A DNA stretch of 64,000 nucleotides from assembly GCA_963717505.1 (NCBI GenBank), contig OY970342.1, positions 672,001 through 736,000 of the forward strand. The letters run 5' to 3'. The stretch's first letter is position 1; each line of letters begins with the position of its first letter. Position numbers and translations under genes: made by a program. Shown here in pieces: positions 1 to 14,939 of this stretch. The notes below the pieces were generated by a model. That model saw only the letters and a list, made by a program, of their open reading frames with translations, had not been told where the DNA came from and did no database searches. This DNA is from Candidatus Eiseniibacteriota bacterium (GTDB lineage Bacteria; Eisenbacteria; RBG-16-71-46).

Positions 1-614
1 GCGCCGGCGATGCCCATCGCCGGGATCGGACCCCAGCCGTAGATCAGCAACGGGTCGAGCACGGCGTTGAGCGACACAGCGAACAGATCCACGAGCAATG
101 GCGTTCGCGTGTCCCCCGCGGCGCGCATGATCGTCTCGCAGGTGAACGAGGCCATGAGGATCGGCGAGCCGGCGAGCACGATCGACAGGTACTGGCCACC
201 GAGTTCGACGACCTGAGCGTCGCCGCCGAGCCACCCGTAGATCGGACGCGCGAAGAACAGGCCGGCGACCGTGCCGATCAGTCCCATGAGTACTGCGACC
301 CGCAGTCCCAGCCAGGCTGCGAGCCCCGCGCGCCGGCGATCGCCGGCGCCGAGCAACTGGCTCACATAGGCCGAGACGCCGAGCCCGAAAACGTCGTGGA
401 GCGAGATGACCAGCCACATCACGAACACCGACGTGGTCACGGCGGCGGTGGCTTCGACCCCGAGCCCGCGCACCCACAGCGCGTCGACCCACTGGTAGGC
501 GGTGCGCAGCAGGAACGAGAAGAAGATCGGGATCGCGAGGCGCAGGAGTTCTGGGCCGATCGGCCCGGTGACGCCGCGGGGCGGATCGGCAGTTCGCGGT
601 GTGGCGTCGGTCAA
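1..614 (-). CDS. MATE family efflux transporter/flippase (5' part; runs off window edge)
   Basis: Manual translation from TTG at 614 (TTGA overlap with the upstream stop) gives ...GPIGPELLRLAIPIFFSFLLRTAYQWVDALWVRGLGVEATAAV... and later MRAAGDTRTPLLV, both typical MATE motifs. Not in the ORF track because it is truncated. Confidence 0.85.
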   Translation of the reverse strand, partial: MTDATPRTADPPRGVTGPIGPELLRLAIPIFFSFLLRTAYQWVDALWVRGLGVEATAAVTTSVFVMWLVISLHDVFGLGVSAYVSQLLGAGDRRRAGLAAWLGLRVAVLMGLIGTVAGLFFARPIYGWLGGDAQVVELGGQYLSIVLAGSPILMASFTCETIMRAAGDTRTPLLVDLFAVSLNAVLDPLLIYGWGPIPAMGIAG

Positions 615-1240
615 CGCTTGAATCCGGGCTCGTCCGACGGCGTCGGCAGCGCCGGCCAGGGCGGCCGATCCATGGCTCCGCCCTCGATGCCCCACGGCTC
701 GCGATCCGAAGGCAGGGGTTCCATCAGGGACTCGGGCGGCTCCGGAGGCTCGATCCCGCGCTCGACCAGACTCAAGTGGAGCCGCGAGATCACGCGCTCG
801 AGATCGAGAACGCGTCCGGTCAGCTCGTGGATGCGCAACGCGAACGAGCGCACCATGGCCGCGGCGAACTCGGGGTGCTCCTGCACGGCGTCCCACACGT
901 CCCCTTGCAGCACGTTGAGCACGTGGGAATGCTCGACCGCGATGAGGGAATACTGGTGAGGCTCACCTTCGCGCAGCCAGAGTTCGCCGAACGCCATCCC
1001 GGCGCGCATGACCCGAACCACCGCCTTGCCGCGTCGCACCTGGATCAATCCATCGACCACCAGGAACGCACCGCGGTCGAGGTCGCCCTCTCGCGCCAGT
1101 TCGTCACCGATTTCACAGTGGATTTCGCGCGCGCGCGCGGCGAGGCCCGCCAGGGCTTCGGTCGGGATGTTCGAGAAGACCGGAATGCTCTTCATGAACG
1201 CGGTCTTTTCGATCAGGGTCAGAGTTTCTTCGGAGATCAG
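611..1240 (-). CDS. Cyclic nucleotide-binding domain protein (no HTH)
   Basis: LTLIEKTAFMKSIPVFS...REGD...FLVVDG.IQV...GMAFGE is a CAP/cNMP beta-roll. Start is uncertain (CTG 1240, ATC 1237, GTG 1270 or ATG 1195); GGAGG at 1248-1244. Confidence 0.8.
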   Translation of the reverse strand: MISEETLTLIEKTAFMKSIPVFSNIPTEALAGLAARAREIHCEIGDELAREGDLDRGAFLVVDGLIQVRRGKAVVRVMRAGMAFGELWLREGEPHQYSLIAVEHSHVLNVLQGDVWDAVQEHPEFAAAMVRSFALRIHELTGRVLDLERVISRLHLSLVERGIEPPEPPESLMEPLPSDREPWGIEGGAMDRPPWPALPTPSDEPGFKR

Positions 1241-3954
1241 GCACCTCCCGCGAGCGCGGCGCGCGCCCACAGCGCGGTCTCGCGCACGTAGGGTTCGCGC
1301 GCGCCGAGGTTGCGATCGACCTGTGCAGCCAGCTCGCGATCGCGCTGCGATCCGGCGACGTACAGCGCGCAGGTCCGGAGCCAGGGGTCGTCGCCTTCGA
1401 TCAGCGCCGCGAGCGAATCGCGCGGGCTCAGGAAGTGGAAGCCGTGCCGGTGGGCCGCCAGGCGCATCCGGGCATCGTCACCTGATTCGTCGACCAGCGG
1501 CAACACCAGCGCGGCATGGTCGGGCGCGATCGCGTTTTCGACATATTCGAGAGCATGGCCCCGGGCGCGCGGATCCAGGCTGATGACGCCGCGATAGGTG
1601 GCCAGGATTTCGTCCTGGCGGTAGAGCAGCCCGAGTCGCCGGAAGACACGGTTGATCGCCTGGTCCATCCGTTCGTTTAGAACAATGCAGAGCAGCCTTT
1701 CGGCGCTCCGACTCCCACCGATCGGACAGCTGCGATAGTTCACCAATGCGAACAGGTAGCTGCGCGCATCCCACGCCATGTCTTCGGTGACCTGATCGCG
1801 CGGGAAGCGGACCGCCCGGTTGCCCTCGCGGATCCGATTCAGGCCCTTGAGCACGCGATAGCCGAGCCGAACGTCGCCGCGCTCCCGAAAGCGCAAGAGC
1901 GCCTGGGCGGCCTGTTCGCTGCCGATGTCGGCGAGCACCCGCGGCAAGGCGCGCCGGATCTCGAGATCGACGCTCGCGTCCGTGAGGTAGTCGCCGAGGG
2001 TTCCCGCGATGCGATCACCGAACGCGGCCAGCCCGGCGCGCGCCGCTTCGCGCGTGCTGCCGTCGGCGAGCATCTCGATCATGCGGGGCACCAGGACTCG
2101 GCGTCCGTGGCGGCCCGCGCTGCGCAATGCTTCCCGGCGAACCTTCGGCGACGGATCACCGACCAGCGCGCTCTCGAGGTCGTCGAAGCCGTCGTCCGAC
2201 GCCCGGTGTCCGATCGCCTTGGCGATCGAGGCCCGCTCCTCGACGTCCCCCTCATGGAGCCTGCGCTCGACGATCGACCGCACCAGCGCCACCTCGACCG
2301 GACCCGCGACCTCGATCATGCAGGCGAGCGCGCTCCGTCGGATTCGCGGATCCGGACTCTCGAGGTAGGGCCGGGCACTCTCGACCATCGAACCGCCCTG
2401 GAGCAGGCAATGAGTCCGCAGGGCGGCGATGCGAACCTCGGCGTCGTCGTCGGCGAGCAGACGCTCGACCGCCTCCCGCACCTCGGGAGGGGAATCTGAC
2501 CGCACGAACGCGAGCGCCCGGGCGCGCACCTCGGCGGCAGAATGAGCCAGGAGTTCCGGCATGTAGCGATCCAGCTCCTCCGGAGCATTGTCCGCCAGCA
2601 TTTCGATCCCATGCAGAACGACGCGCTCGTGGGGGCTCGCCAGCAGGCGACCCATCTCGTCGAGAATCTTGGCTTCGCGCAGCGATACCGTCGTAGCGTG
2701 TGGATCGAGGGTCATGCGGCGCAGATTGCGCCCCAGCTCACGGGCGTAGCCGCGCCGAACACCAACCCACGCCGTCACCCAGACGGCCACCAACACCACC
2801 ACCAGACCGGCGATGGTGCGCGTGTCGGTGCCCATCATGGCGCCGGAGACGATGATCAAGGCGCCGGCCAGAGCGTCGCCCAGACGCTGGAGCCCGACGT
2901 CGATTCGCGAGCGCACGGCGCGCCGGATCTCGGGAGCGAGCGGAAAGTAGAACAAGTCGGTCGCCGATCGGTTCAGGGAATTCCGCAACACCTGATCCCA
3001 CAATCGCGCGGTCACCGAGGTCACGAATCCCGGGAACGCCAGGATCGCAGCCGCGCCGAGACCCAGACCCGCCGGCAGGATCGCGGCCGACCACGTGGCT
3101 CCGATTCGGCCCAGGGACCAACGGGTGACGAACAGCTGCAGGATGAGTGCTGCGAGATTGGTGGCGGTGTGGAACAGGCCGAGGAATTCCGCGAGCGCAG
3201 TCGAGGTCACCAGCCGGCGTTGAATCTCGACCTTGAACTGGAATTCGACCAGGGTCGTGACCAGCACCGAACACAGAGCAGCGATCGCGAGCCAACGCAC
3301 GTAGGACAGCCGCAATGGATTCGGCGTCGGTCCGGTCAGCGGCGCGTCGACATGCTGGACTTCGGCGCGACGCGTGGCGATCCGCAAATGGAGCGCCCCG
3401 CCGGCGAGCAACAGGCCGGCCAGCGCGATCAGCGCCGGAATGCCCAGGGTGGCGGTCACCGGCACCGCCACCAGGCCGGCGACCAGTCCGCCCATGATTC
3501 CGCAGGCGCCGACGAACGCGAACGAGCGTTTGGCCTCGCGCGGGTGCGACAGCGCCTGGGCTGCGATCCAGAATTGCGACAGCAGGATCAGCCCGTAAAC
3601 GTTGACCCAGACGTAGAACACGACCAGCGGCCAAGTCGCTCCGAAACCCCCGACTAGGCTGAACGCGGCCAGCGAGCCAGCTGCGATCCACATGGCGATT
3701 TCGAGCGGCCGCCACGCGGTCAGCGAGCGGGTGCCGCGTTCGAAGGCGATCGCGACGAACGAGGTCACTACGCCGACGCCGAGATAGACGAAGGGCAATA
3801 CGGTGGCGGGCAGATTCGCCAGAAACAGCGCGTCGCGCGCGGTCTTGGCCAGGGTGTACGAGGCCAGGAGCGCGAATAGAAGACCCCCGAGGGTCAGGGC
3901 GCGGCGGGCTTCCTCGGGCTCGAGGCGAAGCAGTCGTGCGACGAGAGGGATCAT
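1237..3954 (-). CDS. Npt1/Npt2 (NTT, ATP/ADP translocase-like MFS) transporter fused to HEAT repeats
   Basis: About 12 TM segments in the N-terminal half with KTARDALFL, SQFW, REAKR.F and LRNSLNRS motifs. The C-terminal half has HEAT-like repeats (LLADDDAEVRIAAL, LVGDPSPKVRREAL). Confidence 0.85.
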   Translation of the reverse strand: MIPLVARLLRLEPEEARRALTLGGLLFALLASYTLAKTARDALFLANLPATVLPFVYLGVGVVTSFVAIAFERGTRSLTAWRPLEIAMWIAAGSLAAFSLVGGFGATWPLVVFYVWVNVYGLILLSQFWIAAQALSHPREAKRSFAFVGACGIMGGLVAGLVAVPVTATLGIPALIALAGLLLAGGALHLRIATRRAEVQHVDAPLTGPTPNPLRLSYVRWLAIAALCSVLVTTLVEFQFKVEIQRRLVTSTALAEFLGLFHTATNLAALILQLFVTRWSLGRIGATWSAAILPAGLGLGAAAILAFPGFVTSVTARLWDQVLRNSLNRSATDLFYFPLAPEIRRAVRSRIDVGLQRLGDALAGALIIVSGAMMGTDTRTIAGLVVVLVAVWVTAWVGVRRGYARELGRNLRRMTLDPHATTVSLREAKILDEMGRLLASPHERVVLHGIEMLADNAPEELDRYMPELLAHSAAEVRARALAFVRSDSPPEVREAVERLLADDDAEVRIAALRTHCLLQGGSMVESARPYLESPDPRIRRSALACMIEVAGPVEVALVRSIVERRLHEGDVEERASIAKAIGHRASDDGFDDLESALVGDPSPKVRREALRSAGRHGRRVLVPRMIEMLADGSTREAARAGLAAFGDRIAGTLGDYLTDASVDLEIRRALPRVLADIGSEQAAQALLRFRERGDVRLGYRVLKGLNRIREGNRAVRFPRDQVTEDMAWDARSYLFALVNYRSCPIGGSRSAERLLCIVLNERMDQAINRVFRRLGLLYRQDEILATYRGVISLDPRARGHALEYVENAIAPDHAALVLPLVDESGDDARMRLAAHRHGFHFLSPRDSLAALIEGDDPWLRTCALYVAGSQRDRELAAQVDRNLGAREPYVRETALWARAALAGGA

Positions 3955-4032: not shown

Positions 4033-5433
4033 ATGCGCTCCCTCGCGCAGTGTCTCTTGGTGATGCTGGTTCTGTCGTGTGCGGTCGCGCGTCCCATCGC
4101 CGCCCAGCCGTCTGCCGACTCTGCGGCGGCCGCGGCCCGATCGTCGCTGGCGCCGACCAGCGCGCCTCCCTGGAATCCACCTGCGGCGGTTCCCCGCTGG
4201 GAACCCTGGGAAGCTGCACTCCAGTTCCCCGGTCGCGTCGTGTCGCTCCCTTTGAGCGGGCTCGGCTGGATGGGCGAGCAGACCCTGGGGTACCTCGAAG
4301 AGTCGCAGCTGGTCGGGAAGGCCCTCGGGTTCCTCGCGGTCACGCAGTTGTACGGCGCCTACGTCGCGCCCGCCTCCCTGGGCGATCGCACGGGCACCGG
4401 CCTCGAGCTGCGCTGGATTCCGCCCTTTCTCAAGGACCGCGTGCTCCTGGAGCTGAGCGGCAGCACACGCCAGTACAACCGCGAGCGCGTGGCCGTGAAT
4501 TGGGGGCCGCTGCGGGCGATCTACGGATCGGAATGGCGATCGCGCGACCTGTTCTACGGCACCGGGATCGACGCTTCGATCGACGGCAAGTCGGCCTACG
4601 CGCTGCGCACACAGTCGATTCGGGTGGCGCTGGTTCACCCACACCACATCGCCAACGATGCGCTTCGAGTCGCCGAGGTCGCGGCGGTCTATCCCAGTCT
4701 GCTGCCGCCGAAGCATCCGATCCGGACCCAGTTCGCGGTGTGGGCCGGACCCCGATATGAATTCATGACCGATGGCCGCGACGCCAAGCTCGAATCGTTC
4801 GAAGTGCTGCATCCGGCGGTGGCCGCCGGGACTCTGCGGCAGGCGGTCGAGCACTTCACCTGGGGCGGCCGCATGCTGTTCGACCGCCGCGTCGGCTCTC
4901 CGCATTGGACTCACGGCTGGAGGCTGCGGCTCGATGGCCAACGCTTCGACCGTTCGATCGAGGCACTCGCGCTCAAGAACAACAGCACGAATGCGAAGCC
5001 CTTCACCCAATTGTCGGCTCAGGCGGAGATCGGAACGTCATGGGGACGCGATCCGCGCACGGTGCGACTCTTGGCCCGGATCATGGATCAGACCCTCGAC
5101 GACGGCGGGGGAACGTACTTGTTCTCCGACCTGCCGTGGCTCGGGGGGAGCGATTACCTGCGGGGCTACGAAACCGGCCGCTTCCGCGACATCGACATGG
5201 TCGCCGGCCGGGCCTCGTACATCTTCCCGATCGGCAAGAGCCTCGAGTTCGACCTCCATGCCGATGTCGGCGGCGTCTTCCCCGAGATGGAGGCCGCCCG
5301 CATGGACCGTCTCGTGAACTCCTACGGCACGGTGCTGCGCGTCCGCGGGGACCGATCGCTGATCGGAAACGTCGGTTTCGAATGGAGTCGAGAACAGACC
5401 CGATTCCGCTTCGGATTTGGAGCCGAGCAATGA
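4033..5433 (+). CDS. Omp85 (BamA/TamA-like) outer membrane beta-barrel, no obvious POTRA domains
   Basis: Signal peptide, amphipathic beta-strands, loop-6 motif LGGSDYLRGYETGRFRD and terminal strand FRFGFG. Confidence 0.75.
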   Translation: MRSLAQCLLVMLVLSCAVARPIAAQPSADSAAAAARSSLAPTSAPPWNPPAAVPRWEPWEAALQFPGRVVSLPLSGLGWMGEQTLGYLEESQLVGKALGFLAVTQLYGAYVAPASLGDRTGTGLELRWIPPFLKDRVLLELSGSTRQYNRERVAVNWGPLRAIYGSEWRSRDLFYGTGIDASIDGKSAYALRTQSIRVALVHPHHIANDALRVAEVAAVYPSLLPPKHPIRTQFAVWAGPRYEFMTDGRDAKLESFEVLHPAVAAGTLRQAVEHFTWGGRMLFDRRVGSPHWTHGWRLRLDGQRFDRSIEALALKNNSTNAKPFTQLSAQAEIGTSWGRDPRTVRLLARIMDQTLDDGGGTYLFSDLPWLGGSDYLRGYETGRFRDIDMVAGRASYIFPIGKSLEFDLHADVGGVFPEMEAARMDRLVNSYGTVLRVRGDRSLIGNVGFEWSREQTRFRFGFGAEQ

Positions 5434-6800
5434 GGCGGCGCATCGCAGGCCTGGTGATCGCGGTGGGCGCGACCATGGTATTGGCGGCGCCCCAGGCTTC
5501 CGGCCAGACCGCCGACAGCACGCACGCCGCACCCCAACCACCCGCGCCGCACGGCATCTCGTACGGCTACGACGCGCTCGAACAGAGCGTCATCCGTCCG
5601 ATGGCGAGGTTCCTCGATCTCGGCTTGCTGGCTCGCCGGCTGGGGGCGGGTCGCCGCGAGGCGGCCAATGTCGACGAGAGCGACCAGGTGCGCCTGCCGA
5701 CCACCTGGTGGACGCCGAGGGTCGGACACCAGACGGTGAGCGTCGAGGACATGCTGCTCGGGCCGGGAGCGGGCACGGGACCGGCGCCCGGTCCGTGGAC
5801 TCTGGTGCGCGCCAAGACCGAGGGCGTCTCCAAAGGCTTCCAGATCAAGGATGCGAAGGGCGCGCGCTTTGCGATCAAGTTCGATCCGCCCCACCACCCG
5901 GAACTGGGGACCTCTGCCGACGTGGTTTGCGCTCGGCTCTACTGGGCTGCGGGCTACAACGTGCCCGACAACACGATCGCGTTCTTCCGGCGCGAGGACC
6001 TGAAGATCGCCGAAGGCGCCACGTACGAGGTCCTCGGAATCAAGCACACGATCGACGAAATGTTCCTCACGAAGTTGCTCCTGGACGTGCCGAAGATGCC
6101 CGACGGCAGCTATCGGGTGGTTGCGAGCCGATACCTCTCCGGTAAGCCGCTCAGCGAATGGCGCTACGACGGCCGGCGCAAGGACGACCCCGAAGATCTG
6201 ATCCCACACGAGCATCGTCGCGAGGTCCGCGGGCTGTGGCTGATCCACGCCTGGCTCAACAACACCGACGGCAGCGCCCGCAACACGCTCGACATGTGGG
6301 TCACCGAAGGCGGGCGCTCGTTCGTCCGCCACCACGTCATCGACTTCAGCGGCTGCCTCGGTTCGGCTTCGATCGCGGCGCAGTCGCCGAGCGGCGGACA
6401 CGAATACCTGCTCGACTACGGGGCTTCGGCGCGTGCATTGGCCACGCTCGGCTTGGTTCCGGCGGGGTGGGAACACGCCGAGGATTCCGGCATTCCAAGC
6501 GTCGGATTCATCGAGTCCGAGTACTTCGAGCCCGGCGGCTGGAAACCATTCCTGCCGAATCCCGCGTTCGACGTGGCCACCGACCGCGATGCGCGCTGGG
6601 GCGCCCGGATCGTTGCCGGATTCTCGGACGAGCACATTCGCGCCGCGGTCGAGATGGGCAGGTACTCCGACCCGCGTGCGGCCGAGTACCTGACCCGCAT
6701 CCTGATCGAGCGTCGCGACAAGATCGCCGCGCGTTGGCTGACACCCGAGGAGGCCGTGGCGGCCCGAGCGGCGTCGGCAGGCGGCAATGGCGCGCGCTGA
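5430..6800 (+). CDS. Secreted protein with predicted atypical (PI3K/HipA-like) kinase fold
   Basis: ATG 5430 overlaps the upstream TGA. Sec signal MRRRIAGLVIAVGATMVLAAPQASG. Motifs in kinase order: KTEGVS (G-loop), FAIKF (beta3 Lys), WLNNTDGSARN (DxxxxN catalytic loop), VIDFSG (DFG-like). Confidence 0.65.
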   Translation: MRRRIAGLVIAVGATMVLAAPQASGQTADSTHAAPQPPAPHGISYGYDALEQSVIRPMARFLDLGLLARRLGAGRREAANVDESDQVRLPTTWWTPRVGHQTVSVEDMLLGPGAGTGPAPGPWTLVRAKTEGVSKGFQIKDAKGARFAIKFDPPHHPELGTSADVVCARLYWAAGYNVPDNTIAFFRREDLKIAEGATYEVLGIKHTIDEMFLTKLLLDVPKMPDGSYRVVASRYLSGKPLSEWRYDGRRKDDPEDLIPHEHRREVRGLWLIHAWLNNTDGSARNTLDMWVTEGGRSFVRHHVIDFSGCLGSASIAAQSPSGGHEYLLDYGASARALATLGLVPAGWEHAEDSGIPSVGFIESEYFEPGGWKPFLPNPAFDVATDRDARWGARIVAGFSDEHIRAAVEMGRYSDPRAAEYLTRILIERRDKIAARWLTPEEAVAARAASAGGNGAR

Positions 6801-8031
6801 CCGCGCGCGCCGCGCCGCGCCGCTGATCGCCCTGTCTCTGCTGGCTCTCGGCTGCGCACCGGTCGGCGCCTACAAGGGCATCGTTCCGGTTCCCGGGGCG
6901 CCGCAGCCGACCGGCGGCCTGCCCGGCGGCCCGGACTCGACGGTGGTGCTGGTCTATGGCGACAGCCGCCCGGGGCAAATGGTGCTGTCCCGTTCCTATG
7001 GAGCTTCGGTGGTCCGCTCGTCGCTGCGCTCGCGCAACCCCGGAGAATGGGTGCGCGGGCTGATCCACGTGCCGATCGCATTCCTCCAGCTCGTGTTTCC
7101 GACCCTCGACGGCGTGCGCGACATCTGGTCCACGTTCGGCTCCAAGCGCTACACCGGCGGCAATCAATTGGGCGTGCTACGCGCAATCTCGGCCGAGGTC
7201 GACGCCGAACTGATCGTGCACACCGGCGACATCGTCGAAGACGGCCGGCGGGGCGGACAGTGGAACGACTTCGTGCGGCTGTACGCGCCGCTACGCGAGT
7301 CGGTGAACTTCATCGCCACCCCGGGGAATCACGAGCGGACCTGGCACCCGGAGGCTCAGAAGAACTGGGAACGGGTGATGGGCGCCAGCAGCGGACCGGG
7401 GCGATTGTGGCACGTCGTCGACATTGGGCGTGCGCGCTTCGTTCTACTGGATTCCAACCCACTCACCGACGTTCGCGACCGATACCCCTCCGATATCGAG
7501 GAGGCTTTGTCCGAGGCGGAGTTGGCGTGGGCGGATTCGGTGCTCGCCGCTCCCTTCGCCTACAAGTTCGTGGTGCTGCACCACCCGCTGGCGACCTCCG
7601 GTCACTACCTCGAGGATTGGACGATGGATGACGCGCGCGGCCGCGCGAGTCGGCGCGGTCGACTGATCGAGATGTGCCACCGCCACGGCGTCACCGCCGT
7701 GCTGGTCGGCCACGAGCACCTGTACGAGCGCACGTGGATCACCGATCGCGAGGGCCGGCGGGGTTTCTGGCACGTGACGACCGGGGGCGGCGGCTCGCCG
7801 CTCAATCGCGTCCCCGACGAACGGCGCCGCAAGGCGTTGGCGCAGACCCTGCCCGATGGCTCGCGCATCACGTTTCCCGCGGAGCCCGAAGCGGTGTATC
7901 ACTTCTGCCGCATGGTGGTGCCCGGTGGCGACGTCTCGGATTCGCCGCCGGTTCTGGTTCGGGTCTACCGGGTGGAAGGCAATCACACGACCAACATGAT
8001 CGATTCGTTCGACCTGGCCCGAACGCCATGA
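6787..8031 (+). CDS. Calcineurin-like metallophosphoesterase (purple acid phosphatase-like), lipoprotein
   Basis: Lipobox LALGC; metal-binding motifs YGDSR, HTGDIV, PGNHE, LHHP, GHEH. Confidence 0.85.
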   Translation: MARADRARRAAPLIALSLLALGCAPVGAYKGIVPVPGAPQPTGGLPGGPDSTVVLVYGDSRPGQMVLSRSYGASVVRSSLRSRNPGEWVRGLIHVPIAFLQLVFPTLDGVRDIWSTFGSKRYTGGNQLGVLRAISAEVDAELIVHTGDIVEDGRRGGQWNDFVRLYAPLRESVNFIATPGNHERTWHPEAQKNWERVMGASSGPGRLWHVVDIGRARFVLLDSNPLTDVRDRYPSDIEEALSEAELAWADSVLAAPFAYKFVVLHHPLATSGHYLEDWTMDDARGRASRRGRLIEMCHRHGVTAVLVGHEHLYERTWITDREGRRGFWHVTTGGGGSPLNRVPDERRRKALAQTLPDGSRITFPAEPEAVYHFCRMVVPGGDVSDSPPVLVRVYRVEGNHTTNMIDSFDLARTP

Positions 8032-8086: not shown

Positions 8087-9466
8087 ATGACCGCCGACCG
8101 CCCGCCACCTGACGCCCCGGACACCCAACGCGGACCGCTCGAACGATTGCTGTCGGTGTTCGCCGAAGTCCGTCAGGGCGAAGGCGGCACGGCGCTCTTG
8201 CTCGCGCTCAACGTCTTCCTGCTCCTGATGTGCTACTACCTCATTCGCCCCGTGCGCGAAGCGCTGATTCTCCAGGTCCCGAGCGGTGCCGAGATCAAGA
8301 GCTACTTGTCCGCCGGGCAGGTCTTCCTGCTGTTGTTCCTGATTCCCGCCTACAGCGCCTTCGCGAATCGGGTCGATCGCATTCGCCTGATCACCGGCGT
8401 CACGCTGATCTTCATCGCGTGCCTGGTCGTTTTCTACGGCCTGGCCCAGCTCCAGCTCACCTACCTCGGGGTCGCGTTCTTTCTCTGGATCGGGATCTTC
8501 AACGTCATGATCACCGCCCAGTTCTGGGCGTACGCCAACGACGTGTACACCGAGGAGCAGGGGAAGCGCCTGTTCGCGATCGTCGCGTTCGGCGCCACCC
8601 TGGGAGCGGTGTTCGGCTCGGGAATCGCGGCCGCACTGATCCGTCCGTTTGGGTTGAATCAGCTGATGCTGGTATCGGCCGGAGTGCTCGGCGTCAGTCT
8701 GGCGCTGACGCGGATCATCGACGCGCGGCTGGGCGCGATCGCGGCAGCCACGCGCGCCACGCGTGCCACACAGGAACCCATGTCGAGCACCGGCGGCTTC
8801 CAGCTCGTACTCCGCGATCGCTACCTGCTCTACATCGGCTTGCTGGTGCTCGCGATCAATCTCGTGAACTCGAACGGCGAGTACATCCTGGGTAAGACCC
8901 TCTCGATGCTTGCCGATCGCAACATCGCGGCCGGCGTGCACGGCGCGCTCGACCCGGGCGAGTACAAGAGGCAGTTCATCGGTGGTTTCTACGCGACCTT
9001 CCTGGTCTGGGTCAGCGTGGTGACCGCACTGGTCCAGTTGTTCCTGGTGTCGCGGGTGATCAAGTGGTTCGGGGTTCGCGTCGCTTTGTTCGTGATGCCC
9101 CTGGTCGCCCTCGGGGGTTACGCCATGCTCGCGATCACTCCGATCCTGGGTCTGATCCGCACGGTCAAGGTCCTCGAGAACTCGCTCGACTACTCGCTGC
9201 AGAACACCGCGCGCCATGCCTTGTGGCTGCCGACCTCGCGCGACGCCAAATACAAGGCCAAGGCGGCGACCGACACCTTCTTCTGGCGCGCCGGCGACGT
9301 GCTGTCGGCGCTGATCGTGTTCATCGGGGCGCAAATCGGGCTACACCCGCAGTCGTTCGCGGCGATCAACGTCGTGCTGGTGCTGGGCTGGCTCGCGGTG
9401 TTGGTCGCGCTGGCCAGGCGTCACCGCGCGCTCGCCGAAGTGCGAGCCGCCGACGCCGCTCGCTAG
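8087..9466 (+). CDS. Npt1/Npt2 (NTT/AAA family) nucleotide transporter, stand-alone
   Basis: About 12 TM segments; YYLIRPVREALIL, QFWAYAND.Y..EQGKRLF, ENSLDYSLQNTAR, KYKAKAATDTFFWRAGD. Confidence 0.85.
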   Translation: MTADRPPPDAPDTQRGPLERLLSVFAEVRQGEGGTALLLALNVFLLLMCYYLIRPVREALILQVPSGAEIKSYLSAGQVFLLLFLIPAYSAFANRVDRIRLITGVTLIFIACLVVFYGLAQLQLTYLGVAFFLWIGIFNVMITAQFWAYANDVYTEEQGKRLFAIVAFGATLGAVFGSGIAAALIRPFGLNQLMLVSAGVLGVSLALTRIIDARLGAIAAATRATRATQEPMSSTGGFQLVLRDRYLLYIGLLVLAINLVNSNGEYILGKTLSMLADRNIAAGVHGALDPGEYKRQFIGGFYATFLVWVSVVTALVQLFLVSRVIKWFGVRVALFVMPLVALGGYAMLAITPILGLIRTVKVLENSLDYSLQNTARHALWLPTSRDAKYKAKAATDTFFWRAGDVLSALIVFIGAQIGLHPQSFAAINVVLVLGWLAVLVALARRHRALAEVRAADAAR

Positions 9467-10611
9467 GGGTTCCCTGCCGTTCGAATGAGTCGCGCGAGGC
9501 CGAAGCGCTCGGGGACCGGGCCGGGAGCTCCGCCGACCATTCCCGCCACTATCTCCCCAATCGCGCTGGCGAACTTGAAGCCGTGGCCCGAGCAGGCGCT
9601 GACCAGGATCGCGCGTGGCTCCACCGGGTGCCGATCGATGATGAAGTCCTCGTCGGCGGTATTGGTGTAAAGGCAGGTCAGGGCTCGGATCGGCGCGCCG
9701 GCGGCCGGGGGAATGTGGCGGCGGAGCGGCGCGAGGATTCGCTCGACCTCGTCGCCTTCGACCTCGCGGCGAACGCGATCGGGATCGATGCGCTCGCCCT
9801 GATGATGGAGCGCAGCTTTGACGGCGCCGTCCAGCGCCGGGAAGGCGTAGAAGAATCGGTCGGGCTCGTATTGCCAGATGGTGATCGGGCAGCGCGCCGG
9901 CTCGAGCAGGGCCGGATCTCGAGCGGGCGCGAACCAAGCCTGAACGACGCGCTCGACCGAGAGCGGCAGATCGAAGCCGTTCAGCAAGCCGCGAAGCCAG
10001 GCCCCGGCCGTGAGGACGACCTGGCCGGCGTGCACCTCACCCCCGCTCGTCTCGACGACGATGCCTCCGGCAGTCGCCCGCCAGCCGGTGACCGCGGTAT
10101 TCATCCGAATCTCGGCGCCAGCGAACGCGGCCTGGTCGAGATGGGCGGCAACGCAGCGTTCGGGCAGGAGCACTCCGGCGCGCGGCTCCCAGACCCCGGC
10201 CATGTCGTCGCCCGGCGCGAACGCCGGGAACCGGCGCCGGATCTCGGTCGCCGACAATAGTTCGTGCCGCAGACCATGGAGGCGAGCGCTGCGCAGAGCG
10301 CCTGCGACCAGGACGCCTCCCGGTGGCCCGATCATCACGCCGCCGGTCTCGATCATGAGCGTCTGCCCGGCGTCGCGCTCGAGCGCCGACCACAGTTCGT
10401 AGGCCCGCTGAACCAGGGGGACGTAGCAGGGATCCTCGAAGTACGCCTCGCGGATGATCCGGCTCCCGCCGTGCGACGAGCCGTGCGTGTGCGGGCTGGT
10501 CCAGCGCTCGAGTCCGACCACCCGGTATCCGTTGCGCGCCAGGTGGCAGAGCGCGGAACTCCCGGCGGCGCCCAGCCCGACGACCGCGACGTCGAACGCC
10601 GAGCGCGTCAT
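9463..10611 (-). CDS. solA: N-methyl-L-tryptophan/sarcosine oxidase (monomeric, FAD)
   Basis: GLGAAG Rossmann motif, HGSSHGGSRIIR, CLYTNT and CSGHGFKF. Confidence 0.88.
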   Translation of the reverse strand: MTRSAFDVAVVGLGAAGSSALCHLARNGYRVVGLERWTSPHTHGSSHGGSRIIREAYFEDPCYVPLVQRAYELWSALERDAGQTLMIETGGVMIGPPGGVLVAGALRSARLHGLRHELLSATEIRRRFPAFAPGDDMAGVWEPRAGVLLPERCVAAHLDQAAFAGAEIRMNTAVTGWRATAGGIVVETSGGEVHAGQVVLTAGAWLRGLLNGFDLPLSVERVVQAWFAPARDPALLEPARCPITIWQYEPDRFFYAFPALDGAVKAALHHQGERIDPDRVRREVEGDEVERILAPLRRHIPPAAGAPIRALTCLYTNTADEDFIIDRHPVEPRAILVSACSGHGFKFASAIGEIVAGMVGGAPGPVPERFGLARLIRTAGNP

Positions 10612-12005: not shown

Positions 12006-14939
12006 ATGGCGCTCGCAGGCCGCCAGTTCGTCCTCTGCTTCTCCCTTTTCTTTGCCGTCCCCGCTCACGCGATCGTGCGGCCGATCGACGCTCCGGAGGG
12101 TGAACTTCGGCCCGATCAGGCACGCGTCGTCCGCATCGCGAGCCCCTCCGCTGCGCCGGCCCTCGATGCGCGCCCCCCCTGGCGCGAGTTCCAGAGCCGA
12201 CACGGTGGGTGGAAGGCCCAATGGAACACGGTCACCAAGAGCCCGCATCGGGCCTGGGGGCCCTCCTTCCCGATCTCGGGCCCGGTGCGCGACGCCGCCA
12301 CGGTCGATGGAGCGCTACGCAGCTTCATCGCGGGGAACCCCGGCGTGTTCGGCACGCCGTCGCTCGAAGTCGCTGCCATCTACTCCGTAAACGGACTCTG
12401 GTACGCCCGCTATCGCCAGAAGATTCACGGTGTGCCGGTGCTGTTCTCCGACTGGGAGTTCCGGGTCTCCGAGTCCGGAAAGCTCATGATGTTCGGCGCC
12501 GATGCGCATGAGCCGAGCCGAGCCCCGCGCACCTCGCCGGTTCTGGTGCGCGCCGCCGCGCGCGAGCAGGCCCGCCGAGGGCTGGCTTACACACCCGGAA
12601 AAGGCACGATCGAAGACGGCGGCTTGTACTTGATGCCCTGGTCCACTGAGACCGGCGTCGAATACCGGCTCGTCTACGAGCAGCGAGTGGTGACCGAAGA
12701 CCCACCGGGAAACTGGATTGCGTTCGTCGACGCCGAAAACGGCGACGTGCTATTCCGCCAGAACCGCGTCCGGTACGTGATCTCGGGCCAGATCACCGGC
12801 GCCATTCACACCTTGCTGCCGACCGATCCGCTGACCACCGCCCCGTTCCGCGACCTGAGGATCTGGGTCGGACCGGACTCCGGCGTCACCAGCTCGCTCG
12901 GGAACTATTCGGTGCCCGCCACCGGCACGGTCAGCGTGCGCGACAGCCTGATCGGGCCGTTCTGCGACGTGAACAACAACCTGCCGTCGATCGCCGTGTT
13001 CAACACCACGGTTGGCAATCCCGCGACCGTCAACATCAATTGGACCGACGCCAACTCGCACGTCGCCGAACGCGACGCCTTCTACCACGTGAACCTGGTC
13101 CACAATTTCATCCGCACGCTCGATCCGGCGTTCACGCAGATCGACTATTCGATGCCGACTCGGGTCAACATCAACCTCAATTGCAATGCGTTCTGGAACG
13201 GCACCGGCGTCAACTTCTACGTCGCCGGCAGCGGCTGCCCGAACACCGCAACGATTCCCGACGTCGTCTATCACGAGTACGGGCACGGCATCAACGACAT
13301 GCTCTACATCCAGGCGGGCTCGTTTGGCGGAATGTTCAGCGGCGCTCTCCACGAAGGCATGGCCGACGTCAATGCCGCGTTCGTGCAGGACGACCCGAAC
13401 ATCGGCAAGGGCTTCACCGGCCCGGGCACGATCTTGAGGACCTGCGACAACACCCGGCGCTGGCCCGATGACGCCGGTGAGGCGCATACCTCGGGGCAAA
13501 TCATCTCGGGGGCGTTCTGGGACCTGCGTCAGGCGGTTGGGCTGACCGTGGCCAGCCGGCTCGCGCATTTCGCGCGCTACGGCATCCCGGACGATCCCCT
13601 CGACGATGGCGTCGCCATGAGCGAGTACTTCGTCGAAACCCTGATCGCGGACGACGACGATGCCAATCTGGGGAACGGCACGCCGCACTTCTCCGACATC
13701 GTGGCGTCGTTCAACGCGCACGGCATCGGCACGGGCTTCTTCGTCGAGTTCACGCACACGCCGCTCGCCGACAACACCAGCACCGGTAACTACCCGGTTA
13801 CCGCCTTGGTTCGCTACACCGGCCCGGTGGGCGCCCTCGACGCCTCCTCGCCCACGCTCTACTTCTCGGTGAATGGCTCCGCTTACGTACCCGCCGCCAT
13901 GACGCCGACCGGCAACCCCGACGAGTTCTCCGCGGTCATCCCCGGCCAGCCGGCGGCGATCGTCTCCTACTACCTGACCGCGGCCGACGTCTACGGCGCG
14001 ACCAACACGCACCCGCCGGTGGCTCCGTCGCGGGAAACGTTCACGTTCCTGGCCGGCCCGGCGACCACGGTGTTCCAGCAGACGATGGAAGCCAATCCGG
14101 GATGGACCGTGGGCGATGCGACCGACAACGCGACCTCGGGAATCTGGGAGCGCGGCAATCCGAACGGTACGCTGGTCGACGGTGTCAACGTCCAGCCCGA
14201 GGACGATCACACGCCGTTTTCGGGCACGGTGTGCTGGTTCACCGGGCAGCACCCGCTCGGCGAGGCGAACCCGGGCCTGAGCGACGTCGATGGCGGCCGG
14301 ACGACACTGACCTCGAACGTCTTCGACGCAGTGACCGCGATCAACTACCCGGTGATCGAGTACTACCGCTGGTACACGAACCAGCTCGGCGGCGCCCCGT
14401 CGTCGGACCTTTGGCGCACGTACGTTTCGAACGACGCCGGCGCGAGCTGGGCGCTGGTCGAGAACACGCTCGATTCGAAGAACGCCTGGCAGCGAGTGCT
14501 GTTCTTCATTCACGACTACGTCACGCCGACCAACGCCATGCGGCTGCGATTCGTTGCCAGCGACTCGGCAGCGGGTTCATTGGTCGAGGCGGGAGTCGAT
14601 GATGTCCGGCTGCTGACCTATCCGTTGTCGCTGTCGATCGGTGGCGACGCGGGAGCCAGTCGCGAAGTCCTCTTGGCGCCGGCGTCGCCGAACCCGATGC
14701 GCTCGCACGCTTCGTTCGCGTTCACCCTGCCGTCGGCGGGCCATGCGTCGCTGCGGGTGTACGACATCCACGGTCGCGCCGTGCGCACGCTGCACCAGGG
14801 CCATCTCGATGCCGGTCCGCACCTCCGGGAGTGGAACGGGCTCGACGACCGCGGGCGGCGCGTGCCGAGCGGGCCCTACTTCGTGAGGCTCGAGCACGGG
14901 CTTCGCCAGGCCATGCGCAAGGTCGTGCGCGTCGAGTAG
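12006..14939 (+). CDS. Secreted M4/M36-like zinc metalloprotease with propeptide and C-terminal FlgD-Ig/T9SS-like domain
   Basis: Signal peptide; NAFWNG, HEYGH, ALHEGMAD and GEAH motifs; C-terminal PNP...LRVYDIHGRAVRTL...GPYFVRL. Confidence 0.85.
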   Translation: MALAGRQFVLCFSLFFAVPAHAIVRPIDAPEGELRPDQARVVRIASPSAAPALDARPPWREFQSRHGGWKAQWNTVTKSPHRAWGPSFPISGPVRDAATVDGALRSFIAGNPGVFGTPSLEVAAIYSVNGLWYARYRQKIHGVPVLFSDWEFRVSESGKLMMFGADAHEPSRAPRTSPVLVRAAAREQARRGLAYTPGKGTIEDGGLYLMPWSTETGVEYRLVYEQRVVTEDPPGNWIAFVDAENGDVLFRQNRVRYVISGQITGAIHTLLPTDPLTTAPFRDLRIWVGPDSGVTSSLGNYSVPATGTVSVRDSLIGPFCDVNNNLPSIAVFNTTVGNPATVNINWTDANSHVAERDAFYHVNLVHNFIRTLDPAFTQIDYSMPTRVNINLNCNAFWNGTGVNFYVAGSGCPNTATIPDVVYHEYGHGINDMLYIQAGSFGGMFSGALHEGMADVNAAFVQDDPNIGKGFTGPGTILRTCDNTRRWPDDAGEAHTSGQIISGAFWDLRQAVGLTVASRLAHFARYGIPDDPLDDGVAMSEYFVETLIADDDDANLGNGTPHFSDIVASFNAHGIGTGFFVEFTHTPLADNTSTGNYPVTALVRYTGPVGALDASSPTLYFSVNGSAYVPAAMTPTGNPDEFSAVIPGQPAAIVSYYLTAADVYGATNTHPPVAPSRETFTFLAGPATTVFQQTMEANPGWTVGDATDNATSGIWERGNPNGTLVDGVNVQPEDDHTPFSGTVCWFTGQHPLGEANPGLSDVDGGRTTLTSNVFDAVTAINYPVIEYYRWYTNQLGGAPSSDLWRTYVSNDAGASWALVENTLDSKNAWQRVLFFIHDYVTPTNAMRLRFVASDSAAGSLVEAGVDDVRLLTYPLSLSIGGDAGASREVLLAPASPNPMRSHASFAFTLPSAGHASLRVYDIHGRAVRTLHQGHLDAGPHLREWNGLDDRGRRVPSGPYFVRLEHGLRQAMRKVVRVE

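Follow-up and report, generated by a model that had tools for sequence, protein, structure and literature searches.

The locus considered here lies within a 64,000-nucleotide stretch of DNA from a Candidatus Eiseniibacteriota bacterium (assembly GCA_963717505.1, contig OY970342.1, positions 672,001 to 736,000 of the forward strand), which is referred to below as the window and numbered from its first nucleotide. It is centred on a plus-strand gene at 5430-6800 which, judged from its translated open reading frame, an AlphaFold2 (AF2) model, fold matches and conservation, encodes an exported kinase-fold protein of 456 amino acids, here called P0001. Its start ATG shares the sequence ATGA (5430-5433) with the stop codon of the gene upstream, which is predicted to encode an outer-membrane barrel, and its last 14 nucleotides overlap the start of a metallophosphoesterase gene. 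This three-gene operon is flanked by two genes for carriers of the nucleotide transporter (NTT) type, one of which is directly followed by a gene for a protein binding cyclic nucleotide monophosphates (cNMP). The kinase-fold gene is present as a single copy in its 4.16-Mb genome, and the nearest loci among the searched genome contigs are found in metagenome-assembled genomes labelled Candidatus Eisenbacteria.

P0001 begins with a predicted Sec-type signal peptide, read from the translation, which occupies residues 1-25 (5430-5504, plus strand). Its sequence, MRRRIAGLVIAVGATMVLAAPQASG, opens with a basic n-region, continues with a hydrophobic core of 16 residues and ends in a cleavage-type site A-S-G, with cleavage predicted between this site and the following Q; the assignment was made by eye together with a hydrophobicity heuristic. 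When the same heuristic was applied to the 214 full-length members among 269 family sequences, defined by a GYNVP-like motif located at least 140 residues from the start (the other 55 were truncated or lacked the motif and were dropped), a hydrophobic N-terminal segment was recognized in 209 of them and a lipobox-like Cys in 47. By this measure of hydrophobicity, export appears to be a trait of the whole family.

Behind the signal peptide, P0001 presents the motifs expected of an atypical kinase, all of them encoded on the plus strand and all followed here through a MAFFT alignment of the 269 family sequences, a sample that over-represents close relatives, since 120 of the 269 come from a 90%-identity database search. 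The Gly-rich loop KTEGVS (residues 129-134; 5814-5831) retains K129 in 255 of 265 sequences and G132 in 263 of 266. It is followed by the β3 strand motif FAIK (residues 147-150), whose Lys150 (5877-5879), the predicted contact to the ATP phosphates, is kept in 266 of 268 relatives, and by the αC helix (159-173) with the motif SADVV (162-166), where Asp164 (5919-5921) takes the acidic position, occupied by D in 146 and by E in 101 of 268 sequences (247 in total). The GYNVP motif comprises residues 175-179. Further downstream, the catalytic loop WLNNTDGSARN (residues 275-285; 6252-6284) supplies Asp280 and Asn285, each conserved in 264 of 269 sequences, and the DFG-like element IDFSG (residues 304-308; 6339-6353) supplies Asp305, a predicted Mg2+ ligand found in 265 of 268. 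In other words, the catalytic Lys, Asp, Asn and Asp are retained in about 98-99% of the 269 relatives, and every element sought in a test for protein-kinase-like (PKL) proteins, namely the Lys, the acidic residue of αC, the catalytic Asp and Asn and the metal-binding Asp, is present. A preliminary description of this DNA, made from its letters, had named six such motifs in canonical order, had located the FAIK lysine at about 5877 and had pointed to an Asp at the site where the αC Glu usually sits; translation finds all six in the places given, the lysine and the aspartate included. It had also named a loss of conservation of the K/D/N/D residues among homologues as grounds for giving the idea up, and the retention just described speaks to the opposite. 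Given this retention in 269 members, the motifs of P0001 are not to be taken as chance matches.

Conservation in the family extends beyond the residues shared with other kinases. A family-specific loop, RKDDPEDLIPHEHRREVR (residues 250-267; 6177-6230), contains Asp253, present in 268 of 269 sequences, and Asp256, His260, Arg264 and Arg267, which are found in 269 of 269. Further residues that are close to invariant are Arg97 (256/257) in the N-terminal region and Asp387 (268/268), Trp390 (267/268) and Arg428 (266/266) in the C-terminal part of the protein.

The AF2 model of P0001, calculated from an input alignment (A1) of 39 rows hand-picked for diversity from the 269 relatives, reached a mean predicted local distance difference test (pLDDT) value of 91.1 and a predicted template-modelling (TM) score of 0.89. 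In this model the N-lobe is built from strands 123-128, 136-140 and 146-150 followed by the helix 159-173, and a helix at 269-276 leads into the catalytic loop, a hairpin (286-303) and the DFG-like element. When the model was compared with 48,161 representative chains of the PDB using VIA-align, the best match was CtkA (3akj, Z 13.7, 227 residues aligned, root-mean-square deviation 4.3), followed by the Fam20 structures 5xom (Z 13.0 over 257 residues) and Fam20C 5yh0 (Z 12.9), the type II phosphatidylinositol 4-kinase (PI4K) PI4KII-alpha (4pla, Z 12.8), CotH (5jda, Z 12.2), actin-fragmin kinase (1cja, Z 11.8), HipA (4pu3, Z 10.9), HipT (7ab3, Z 10.8) and MavQ (7m7a, Z 10.4). All chains with Z between 10.4 and 13.7 have a kinase fold, and the next match falls to 7.5. 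Foldseek returned the same families at E of about 3e-4, with Fam20C first and with CtkA and ERK2 also among the matches. On the strength of the model and its structural matches, we are confident that P0001 adopts a bilobal atypical kinase-like fold, which the preliminary description had made the touchstone of its proposal; the families that it had singled out for a Foldseek comparison (HipA, PI4K, Fam20C and CotH) are indeed the best structural matches.

At the level of sequence, kinship with these families is much harder to trace. Neither Pfam nor NCBIfam contains a model that recognizes P0001 at E ≤1, and phmmer finds no counterpart for it among the PDB sequences; Fam20 (PF06702), PI3_PI4_kinase (PF00454) and CotH (PF08757) are among the Pfam models without a match at E ≤1, and a profile of the 39 relatives of A1 found nothing among the PDB sequences save a chance armadillo-repeat match at E 1.6. 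The likeness to Fam20, PI4K and CotH is thus one of modelled structure, and the earlier suggestion of a new family holds with regard to the Pfam, NCBIfam and PDB sequence libraries, none of which recognizes P0001. Membership in HipA_C (PF07804) is likewise not indicated, as P0001 gives no match and only three of the 39 relatives do so weakly (best E 0.026), and the HipA_2 (PF20613) hidden Markov model (HMM) recognizes two of the 39 relatives, again weakly, and not P0001 itself. Profile-profile comparison reaches further: alignment of A1 by hhalign with 17 HipA_2 members (alignment A3, drawn from 22 matching proteins of same-phylum genomes, the partial ones being left out) gave a probability of 79.9% and an E of 1.4e-5 over 143 columns. 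In this alignment, the KTEGVS loop stands opposite the EGGSLPA loop of HipA_2, Lys150 opposite the Lys of VVKFR, Asp/Glu164 opposite the Glu of AE, Asp280 and Asn285 opposite NVDRTARN and Asp305 opposite IDHG, GYNVP being paired with its counterpart as well. Compared as profiles, the two groups indicate that P0001 is remotely akin to HipA_2 without being a member. When E. coli HipA alone was aligned with A1, only the catalytic loop was covered, in register (Asp280 with Asp309, Asn285 with Asn314) and at a non-significant probability of 0.3%. In the ESM Atlas, P0001 falls among unnamed clusters of the 'putative secreted protein' kind, the nearest named clusters, all sub-threshold, being bacterial Fam20C-domain, PI3_PI4_kinase and HipA_2. 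As a side observation, the window's phylum does possess HipA_2 genes of the cytoplasmic type, in 21 of the 151 genomes compared; the window's own genome has none.

The family is large, with 1153 matches among 8000 candidates scored in a 90%-identity database and 2596 representatives at E ≤0.001 in a 50%-identity library. Most of the latter are about 560 amino acids long and carry a C-terminal extension of approximately 110 residues, which neither the window copy nor its closest relatives possess. Six of 120 listed close relatives (P0054, P0069, P0072, P0075, P0079 and P0086), of about 730-790 amino acids and 57-64% identity, carry a membrane PAP2 domain as a C-terminal fusion, which is joined through a Pro/Ala-rich linker and retains the PSGH and R-x5-H-x3-D motifs. 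Owing to this fusion to a membrane domain, the kinase domain of these proteins would stay in the periplasm. A description of the family or of its gene module was not found in the literature searched, and supplementary tables outside that search may list the family. The available portion of one preprint (bioRxiv 10.64898/2026.09.18.752743) deals with further kinase-like families, one of them cytoplasmic and PAP2-linked, and not with the family of P0001. We regard the P0001 family as new within a known kinase-fold class and as set in an undescribed envelope module, and the inference drawn in the preliminary description, a new family of periplasmic kinases or nucleotidyl-transferases, is thereby supported. 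The conserved partners in the module, namely the Omp85 barrel, the NTT carriers and the phosphoesterase, are not mentioned in that description.

The most constant element of this module is the barrel gene (4033-5433, plus strand), which is translationally coupled to the kinase-fold gene and encodes a 466-residue protein of the Omp85 superfamily lacking POTRA domains, as judged from PF01103, AF2 and Foldseek. PF01103 scores 21.5 bits on the window copy, which is below the cut-off of 24, and 60.9 bits on a homologue. The AF2 model (pLDDT 82.6) starts with two helices (58-90 and 93-106), directly after which come 16 strands, and neither this model nor a Pfam scan reveals a POTRA domain. With TamA (8us4, E 5.1e-11), Sam50 and BamA as its Foldseek matches, the modelled product is a 16-strand barrel of the Omp85 type. 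Gene neighbourhoods were compared in 81 loci, that is, the window and 80 fetched loci, whose genes were called with a custom caller and whose proteins were clustered by blastp. The barrel cluster is found in at least 69 of the 81, and in at least 52 the barrel gene lies immediately upstream on the same strand, with an overlap of 4 nucleotides in 14 loci and of 1 nucleotide in six; these counts are lower bounds, because the caller merges barrel and kinase in some loci of high G+C content (e.g. L003, L007, L010, L020 and L023). A tblastn search with the window barrel alone reached E <1e-5 in 31 of the 80 fetched loci, a low number that is attributable to the divergence of the barrels.

Structure prediction also brings the two proteins together. 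When residues 25-466 of the barrel and 31-450 of P0001 were modelled jointly, the complex scored 0.75 (0.74, 0.75 and 0.75 in three runs), a mark that is attained by 58 of 80 solved complexes and by two of 110 mismatched pairs, and the best of three control partners scored 0.00. The three runs share at least 92% of their contacts, with partner pLDDT values of at least 84. On the barrel side, the predicted interface includes the N-terminal extension (35-85) and the periplasmic turns 338-342, 396-408 and 440; on the kinase side, it is formed by the conserved N-terminal region (44-107, Arg97 among them), the invariant loop at 247-262, the post-catalytic hairpin at 293-300 and a segment spanning 316-348. 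Positions 255, 257-259 and 261-262 of the invariant loop fall within it. The model thus supports a complex of the kinase-fold protein with the barrel on the periplasmic side.

The second partner of interest is the NTT carrier. Downstream of the metallophosphoesterase gene, a gene at 8087-9466 (plus strand) encodes a 459-residue nucleotide-carrier-like transporter of the NTT/TLC type (PF03219, 55.2 bits), whose sole sequence matches in the PDB are the ADP,ATP carrier protein 1 entries 9j3n and 9j3j. On the other side, divergent from the barrel gene across 78 base pairs, a gene at 1237-3954 (minus strand) encodes a 905-residue NTT-HEAT fusion transporter (PF03219, 41.2 bits; HEAT_2, E 1e-16). 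Both carriers pass the PF03219 gathering score of 21, and two of the genome's three TLC-like genes therefore flank the barrel-kinase-metallophosphoesterase operon; the third lies outside the window, at G000:C1:551813-552382, in a 736-residue reading frame. Directly downstream of the NTT-HEAT gene is that for the cNMP-binding protein (219 amino acids; 611-1270, minus strand; PF00027, E 4.9e-10). The cNMP-binding gene shares 34 nucleotides with the end of the NTT-HEAT gene, and its cluster (c6) is found in 12 of the 81 loci.

NTT genes are present in 36 of the 81 loci, in at least four arrangements. Sorted by label, these loci include 13 of 13 from Eisenbacteria, 13 of 41 from Acidobacteriota, two of three from Zixibacteria and single loci elsewhere. 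The association is seen again when whole genomes are considered. Among 151 genomes of the window's phylum, 82 encode the kinase-fold protein (E ≤1e-20) and 79 a TLC match, with 74 having both, eight the kinase only, five the TLC only and 64 neither; these counts include one unpublished genome positive for both (G015), without which they become 73, 8, 5 and 64 of 150. Within the window's own family, both genes are patchily distributed, in 25 and 28 of 59 genomes, respectively, yet their occurrence is matched, and in at least 61 of the 74 double-positive genomes they lie on one contig no more than 10 kb apart, according to coordinates read by eye. A comparable sample of 151 Acidobacteriota, drawn around the genome of locus L054, contains TLC matches in 24 of 29 kinase-positive and 31 of 122 kinase-negative genomes (23 of 28 kinase-positive without the unpublished, doubly positive G202). 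In L054 itself, the kinase gene does not lie beside an NTT gene, and the NTT genes are found elsewhere in the genome. The link between kinase and NTT is therefore strong, although not obligatory in either direction.

The remaining neighbours are more variable. The metallophosphoesterase gene of the window (6787-8031, plus strand; PF00149, E 9e-15) encodes a protein with a lipoprotein-like signal (..LLALGC..), and its cluster is present in 25 of the 81 loci. In Acidobacteriota, a two-component system is often found 3' of the barrel-kinase pair, and its best NCBIfam matches are PhoB for the regulator (227-238 bits, cut-off 296) and PnpS and PhoR for the histidine kinase (337-343 and 292-293 bits, cut-offs 400 and 334). 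PHO4/Pit-like genes occur in eight of the 81 loci and PhoU_div genes in seven. In seven acidobacterial loci (L025, L041, L048, L052, L054, L070 and L071), the pair is followed by the PhoB-like and PhoR/PnpS-like genes and then by convergent PHO4/Pit-like and PhoU_div genes, the latter not being seen in L041, whose locus ends there; these phosphate-homeostasis neighbourhoods have no NTT genes nearby. The 78-base-pair divergent promoter region of the window contains no obvious repeat that would resemble a Pho box, there being no consensus for the window's phylum with which to compare it. Genes for Hanks-type Ser/Thr kinases (Pkinase, some with TPR) adjoin the module in 15 of the 81 loci, for instance L033, L044, L060, L072 and L081.

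Two further genes of the window deserve a brief mention. A DAO-family flavin adenine dinucleotide (FAD) oxidoreductase gene (9463-10611, minus strand) is convergent with the NTT gene, and its cluster (c30) is also found 3' of the module in L005 and L007; it probably reflects lineage synteny rather than being a part of the module. Further along, a 977-residue protein (12006-14939, plus strand) with a thermolysin-type Peptidase_M4 domain and a C-terminal FlgD_ig-like domain is, from its domain content, probably a secreted metalloprotease. Two other classes of system were considered for the locus as a whole. A toxin-antitoxin module of the HipA type was ruled out, given that no antitoxin gene is found among the neighbours and that the protein has a signal peptide, and a defence system was set aside, PADLOC having returned only two negligible matches for the five operon proteins.

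How might these components work together? Computation has yielded the gene and its export signal, the kinase-like fold of the product with its conserved catalytic residues, a linkage to the barrel gene and, for the NTT genes, both linkage and co-occurrence, and these results can be accommodated in one scheme that we favour, tentatively and at somewhat short of even confidence: a Sec-exported enzyme resembling HipA, PI4K and Fam20 would be docked on the barrel and fed with ATP by the NTT carriers, and it would phosphorylate a substrate in the envelope, opposed by the phosphoesterase. After Sec export, the kinase-fold protein would dock on the periplasmic face of the barrel and on its N-terminal extension. 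There, it would use ATP to attach phosphate, or possibly a different nucleotide moiety, to its substrate, for which the periplasmic extension of the barrel, something passing through the barrel or an envelope lipid are candidates. The co-inherited carriers of the NTT/TLC type would swap cytoplasmic ATP for periplasmic ADP. Exchange of ATP (outwards) for ADP (inwards) would be favoured by the membrane potential, as for the mitochondrial carrier. Finally, the lipoprotein-like metallophosphoesterase would remove the phosphate, a task that may fall to the fused PAP2 phosphatase in some close relatives. In this scheme we infer catalysis itself, ATP as the donor, the direction of NTT transport, the role of the phosphatase as an antagonist and the nature of the substrate.

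Several observations weigh against this proposal. The fold matches are remote, with a Foldseek TM score of about 0.35 and a sequence identity of 6-15%, and P0001 alone matches no kinase HMM in Pfam or NCBIfam and no kinase among the PDB sequences. The complex score of 0.75 is the model's own confidence, obtained with our own alignments, so that its calibration is only rough. Both carriers of the window remain far under the NCBIfam cut-off for NTT (TIGR00769; 31.5 and 39.5 versus 387 bits). Kinase-positive genomes without a TLC match amount to eight of 82 in the phylum and five of 29 in Acidobacteriota, TLC without the kinase is found in five and 31 genomes, respectively, and the sampled genomes are related to each other, so that all these counts overstate independence. 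Beside some acidobacterial pairs, genes of the Pho type replace NTT, and a role in phosphate acquisition fits these loci equally well. Moreover, ATP is small enough to perhaps leak out via porins. As far as the available portion of the survey by Major, Embley and Williams (2017; PMC5381601) is concerned, no characterised NTT is known to export ATP in a free-living bacterium, and the NTT-HEAT proteins are without an assigned function.

Some of these points lead directly to the main rival of the proposed phosphorylation scheme, namely phosphate scavenging, in which the barrel would admit organophosphates, polyphosphate or nucleotides, the phosphoesterase would free the phosphate and the NTTs would import nucleotides, leaving to the kinase-fold protein the part of a phosphotransferase run towards ADP, of a hydrolase or of a binding protein. 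The many Arg, His and Asp positions that are invariant in the family (among them R97, R264, R267, R428 and H260) would suit a polyanionic ligand, but phosphotransfer from Mg-ATP typically goes with just such an intact set of Lys, Asp, Asn and Asp as is found here, and we know of no phosphate-scavenging enzyme with a kinase-like fold, which weighs against this explanation. Phosphate-related neighbours can be cited on both sides: regulators with PhoB as their best match (227-238 bits) and PnpS/PhoR-like histidine kinases adjoin acidobacterial pairs, with PHO4/Pit-like genes in eight loci, PhoU_div in seven and the metallophosphoesterase in 25 of 81, but the PhoB and PhoR matches lie under the NCBIfam equivalog cut-offs (296, 400 and 334 bits) and neighbours of the Pho type are confined to about 7-10 of the 41 acidobacterial loci. 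Every characterised NTT covered in the available part of PMC5381601 is an importer, which also speaks for scavenging. On balance, this explanation seems to us unlikely.

Two other explanations appear very improbable, to a similar degree. According to one of them, the system would resemble two-partner secretion (TPS), with the Omp85 barrel exporting the kinase-fold protein to the surface or the medium as a secreted kinase or toxin. The tight coupling of the barrel gene to a gene for a signal-peptide protein and the predicted binding between the two would agree with this, as would the closest fold match, CtkA, which is titled in the PDB as a proinflammatory kinase of H. pylori. However, the barrel has no POTRA domain and its would-be cargo neither a TPS domain nor any other Pfam match; in the model, the enzyme is docked in folded form on the extension and turns at the periplasmic side of the barrel; the fusion to an alpha-helical PAP2 membrane domain in six of 120 listed relatives is incompatible with release; and the link to inner-membrane nucleotide carriers is left unexplained. 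The other explanation dispenses with catalysis altogether and casts P0001 as a pseudokinase-like protein that would scaffold, plug or regulate the barrel, or as a nucleotide sensor that would do no more than bind ATP or ADP. Fam20A provides a pseudokinase precedent in the same fold class (title of 5wrs), and the invariant loop, together with the conserved N-terminal W93 and R97, lies in the predicted interface with the barrel and not in the active site. Against this stands the retention of Lys, Asp, Asn and Asp at about 98-99% in 269 members across many phyla. Pseudokinases usually lose their catalytic residues, which is hard to reconcile with such a pattern.

P0001 and its partners can also be compared with systems already known. 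The HipA-like kinases (CtkA, 3AKJ; HipA and HipT; PF07804 and PF20613) have in common with P0001 the order of the motifs, the D-x4-N loop, the hairpin and the Asp of the [ID][FH]G element. Unlike them, P0001 is predicted to be exported, lacks a HipB-type antitoxin among its neighbours and has an Omp85 barrel as a partner, and it is further set apart by an N-terminal region of 100 residues and by its own invariant loop of the form DDPxDxxxHExRRExRG. Type II phosphatidylinositol 4-kinases and the Legionella lipid kinase MavQ (4PLA and 7M7A) resemble P0001 in fold (Z 12.8 and 10.4), and a lipid phosphate cycle would be in keeping with the PAP2 fusions of its close relatives; P0001 differs in giving no PF00454 match. 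The Fam20 enzymes (Fam20C and Fam20B; 4KQB and 5XOM) offer a functional parallel, being kinase-fold enzymes that act outside the cytosol, as P0001 would, and in both cases a compartment without ATP synthesis of its own would need a nucleotide carrier. Fam20 kinases are fed by an ATP/ADP exchanger of the endoplasmic reticulum and Golgi. P0001 differs in being bacterial and periplasmic, in giving no PF06702 match, in its carrier of the NTT/TLC type and in its outer-membrane barrel partner.

The carriers and the barrel have precedents of their own. The available part of PMC5381601 describes an NTT-HEAT gene combined with a domain that binds cyclic nucleotides (cNBD) as an arrangement widespread in free-living bacteria, and the window reproduces it, the architecture of the fusion protein included, with the NTT-HEAT gene (1237-3954) followed by the cNMP-binding gene (611-1270); unlike in that account, where neither is mentioned in the part available, the carriers of the window are linked to kinase-fold and Omp85 genes. 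With respect to the barrel, the 'noNterm' class of POTRA-less Omp85 proteins (Heinz and Lithgow, 2014; PMC4104836), for which the available text of that study suggests a role in membrane-protein biogenesis, likewise has 16 strands and no POTRA. The window barrel differs from the class as described there in its helical N-terminal extension (58-90 and 93-106), which is predicted to hold the kinase-fold protein. The POTRA domains of the transporter and the TPS domain of the cargo that mark two-partner secretion (TpsB/TpsA) are not seen in the window barrel and its would-be cargo.

The wider interest of the module stems from the place in which it would operate. The periplasm is generally described as free of ATP, and ATP-using enzymes located there, of which the ligase Lig E and the apyrase PhoN2 are two examples, are considered rare exceptions. 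A more far-reaching version of our proposal, which we hold to be doubtful, states that free-living diderms of many phyla supply their periplasm with ATP by means of NTT and NTT-HEAT carriers and thereby drive a kinase/phosphatase cycle at an Omp85 barrel. If this version is true, bacteria would have their own equivalent of the kinases of the eukaryotic secretory pathway with the associated ATP/ADP exchanger, and the textbook notion of an ATP-free periplasm would be overturned. Should the carriers indeed deliver ATP, phyla of soil and sediment (Eisenbacteria, Acidobacteriota, Zixibacteria and others) would possess a novel system for phosphorylation in the envelope, a function would be found for the NTT-HEAT(-cNBD) genes and the POTRA-less Omp85 proteins would acquire a role. 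With a single operon, these three ideas become directly testable, and so do the questions of whether ATP is used in the periplasm and what NTT-HEAT proteins do.

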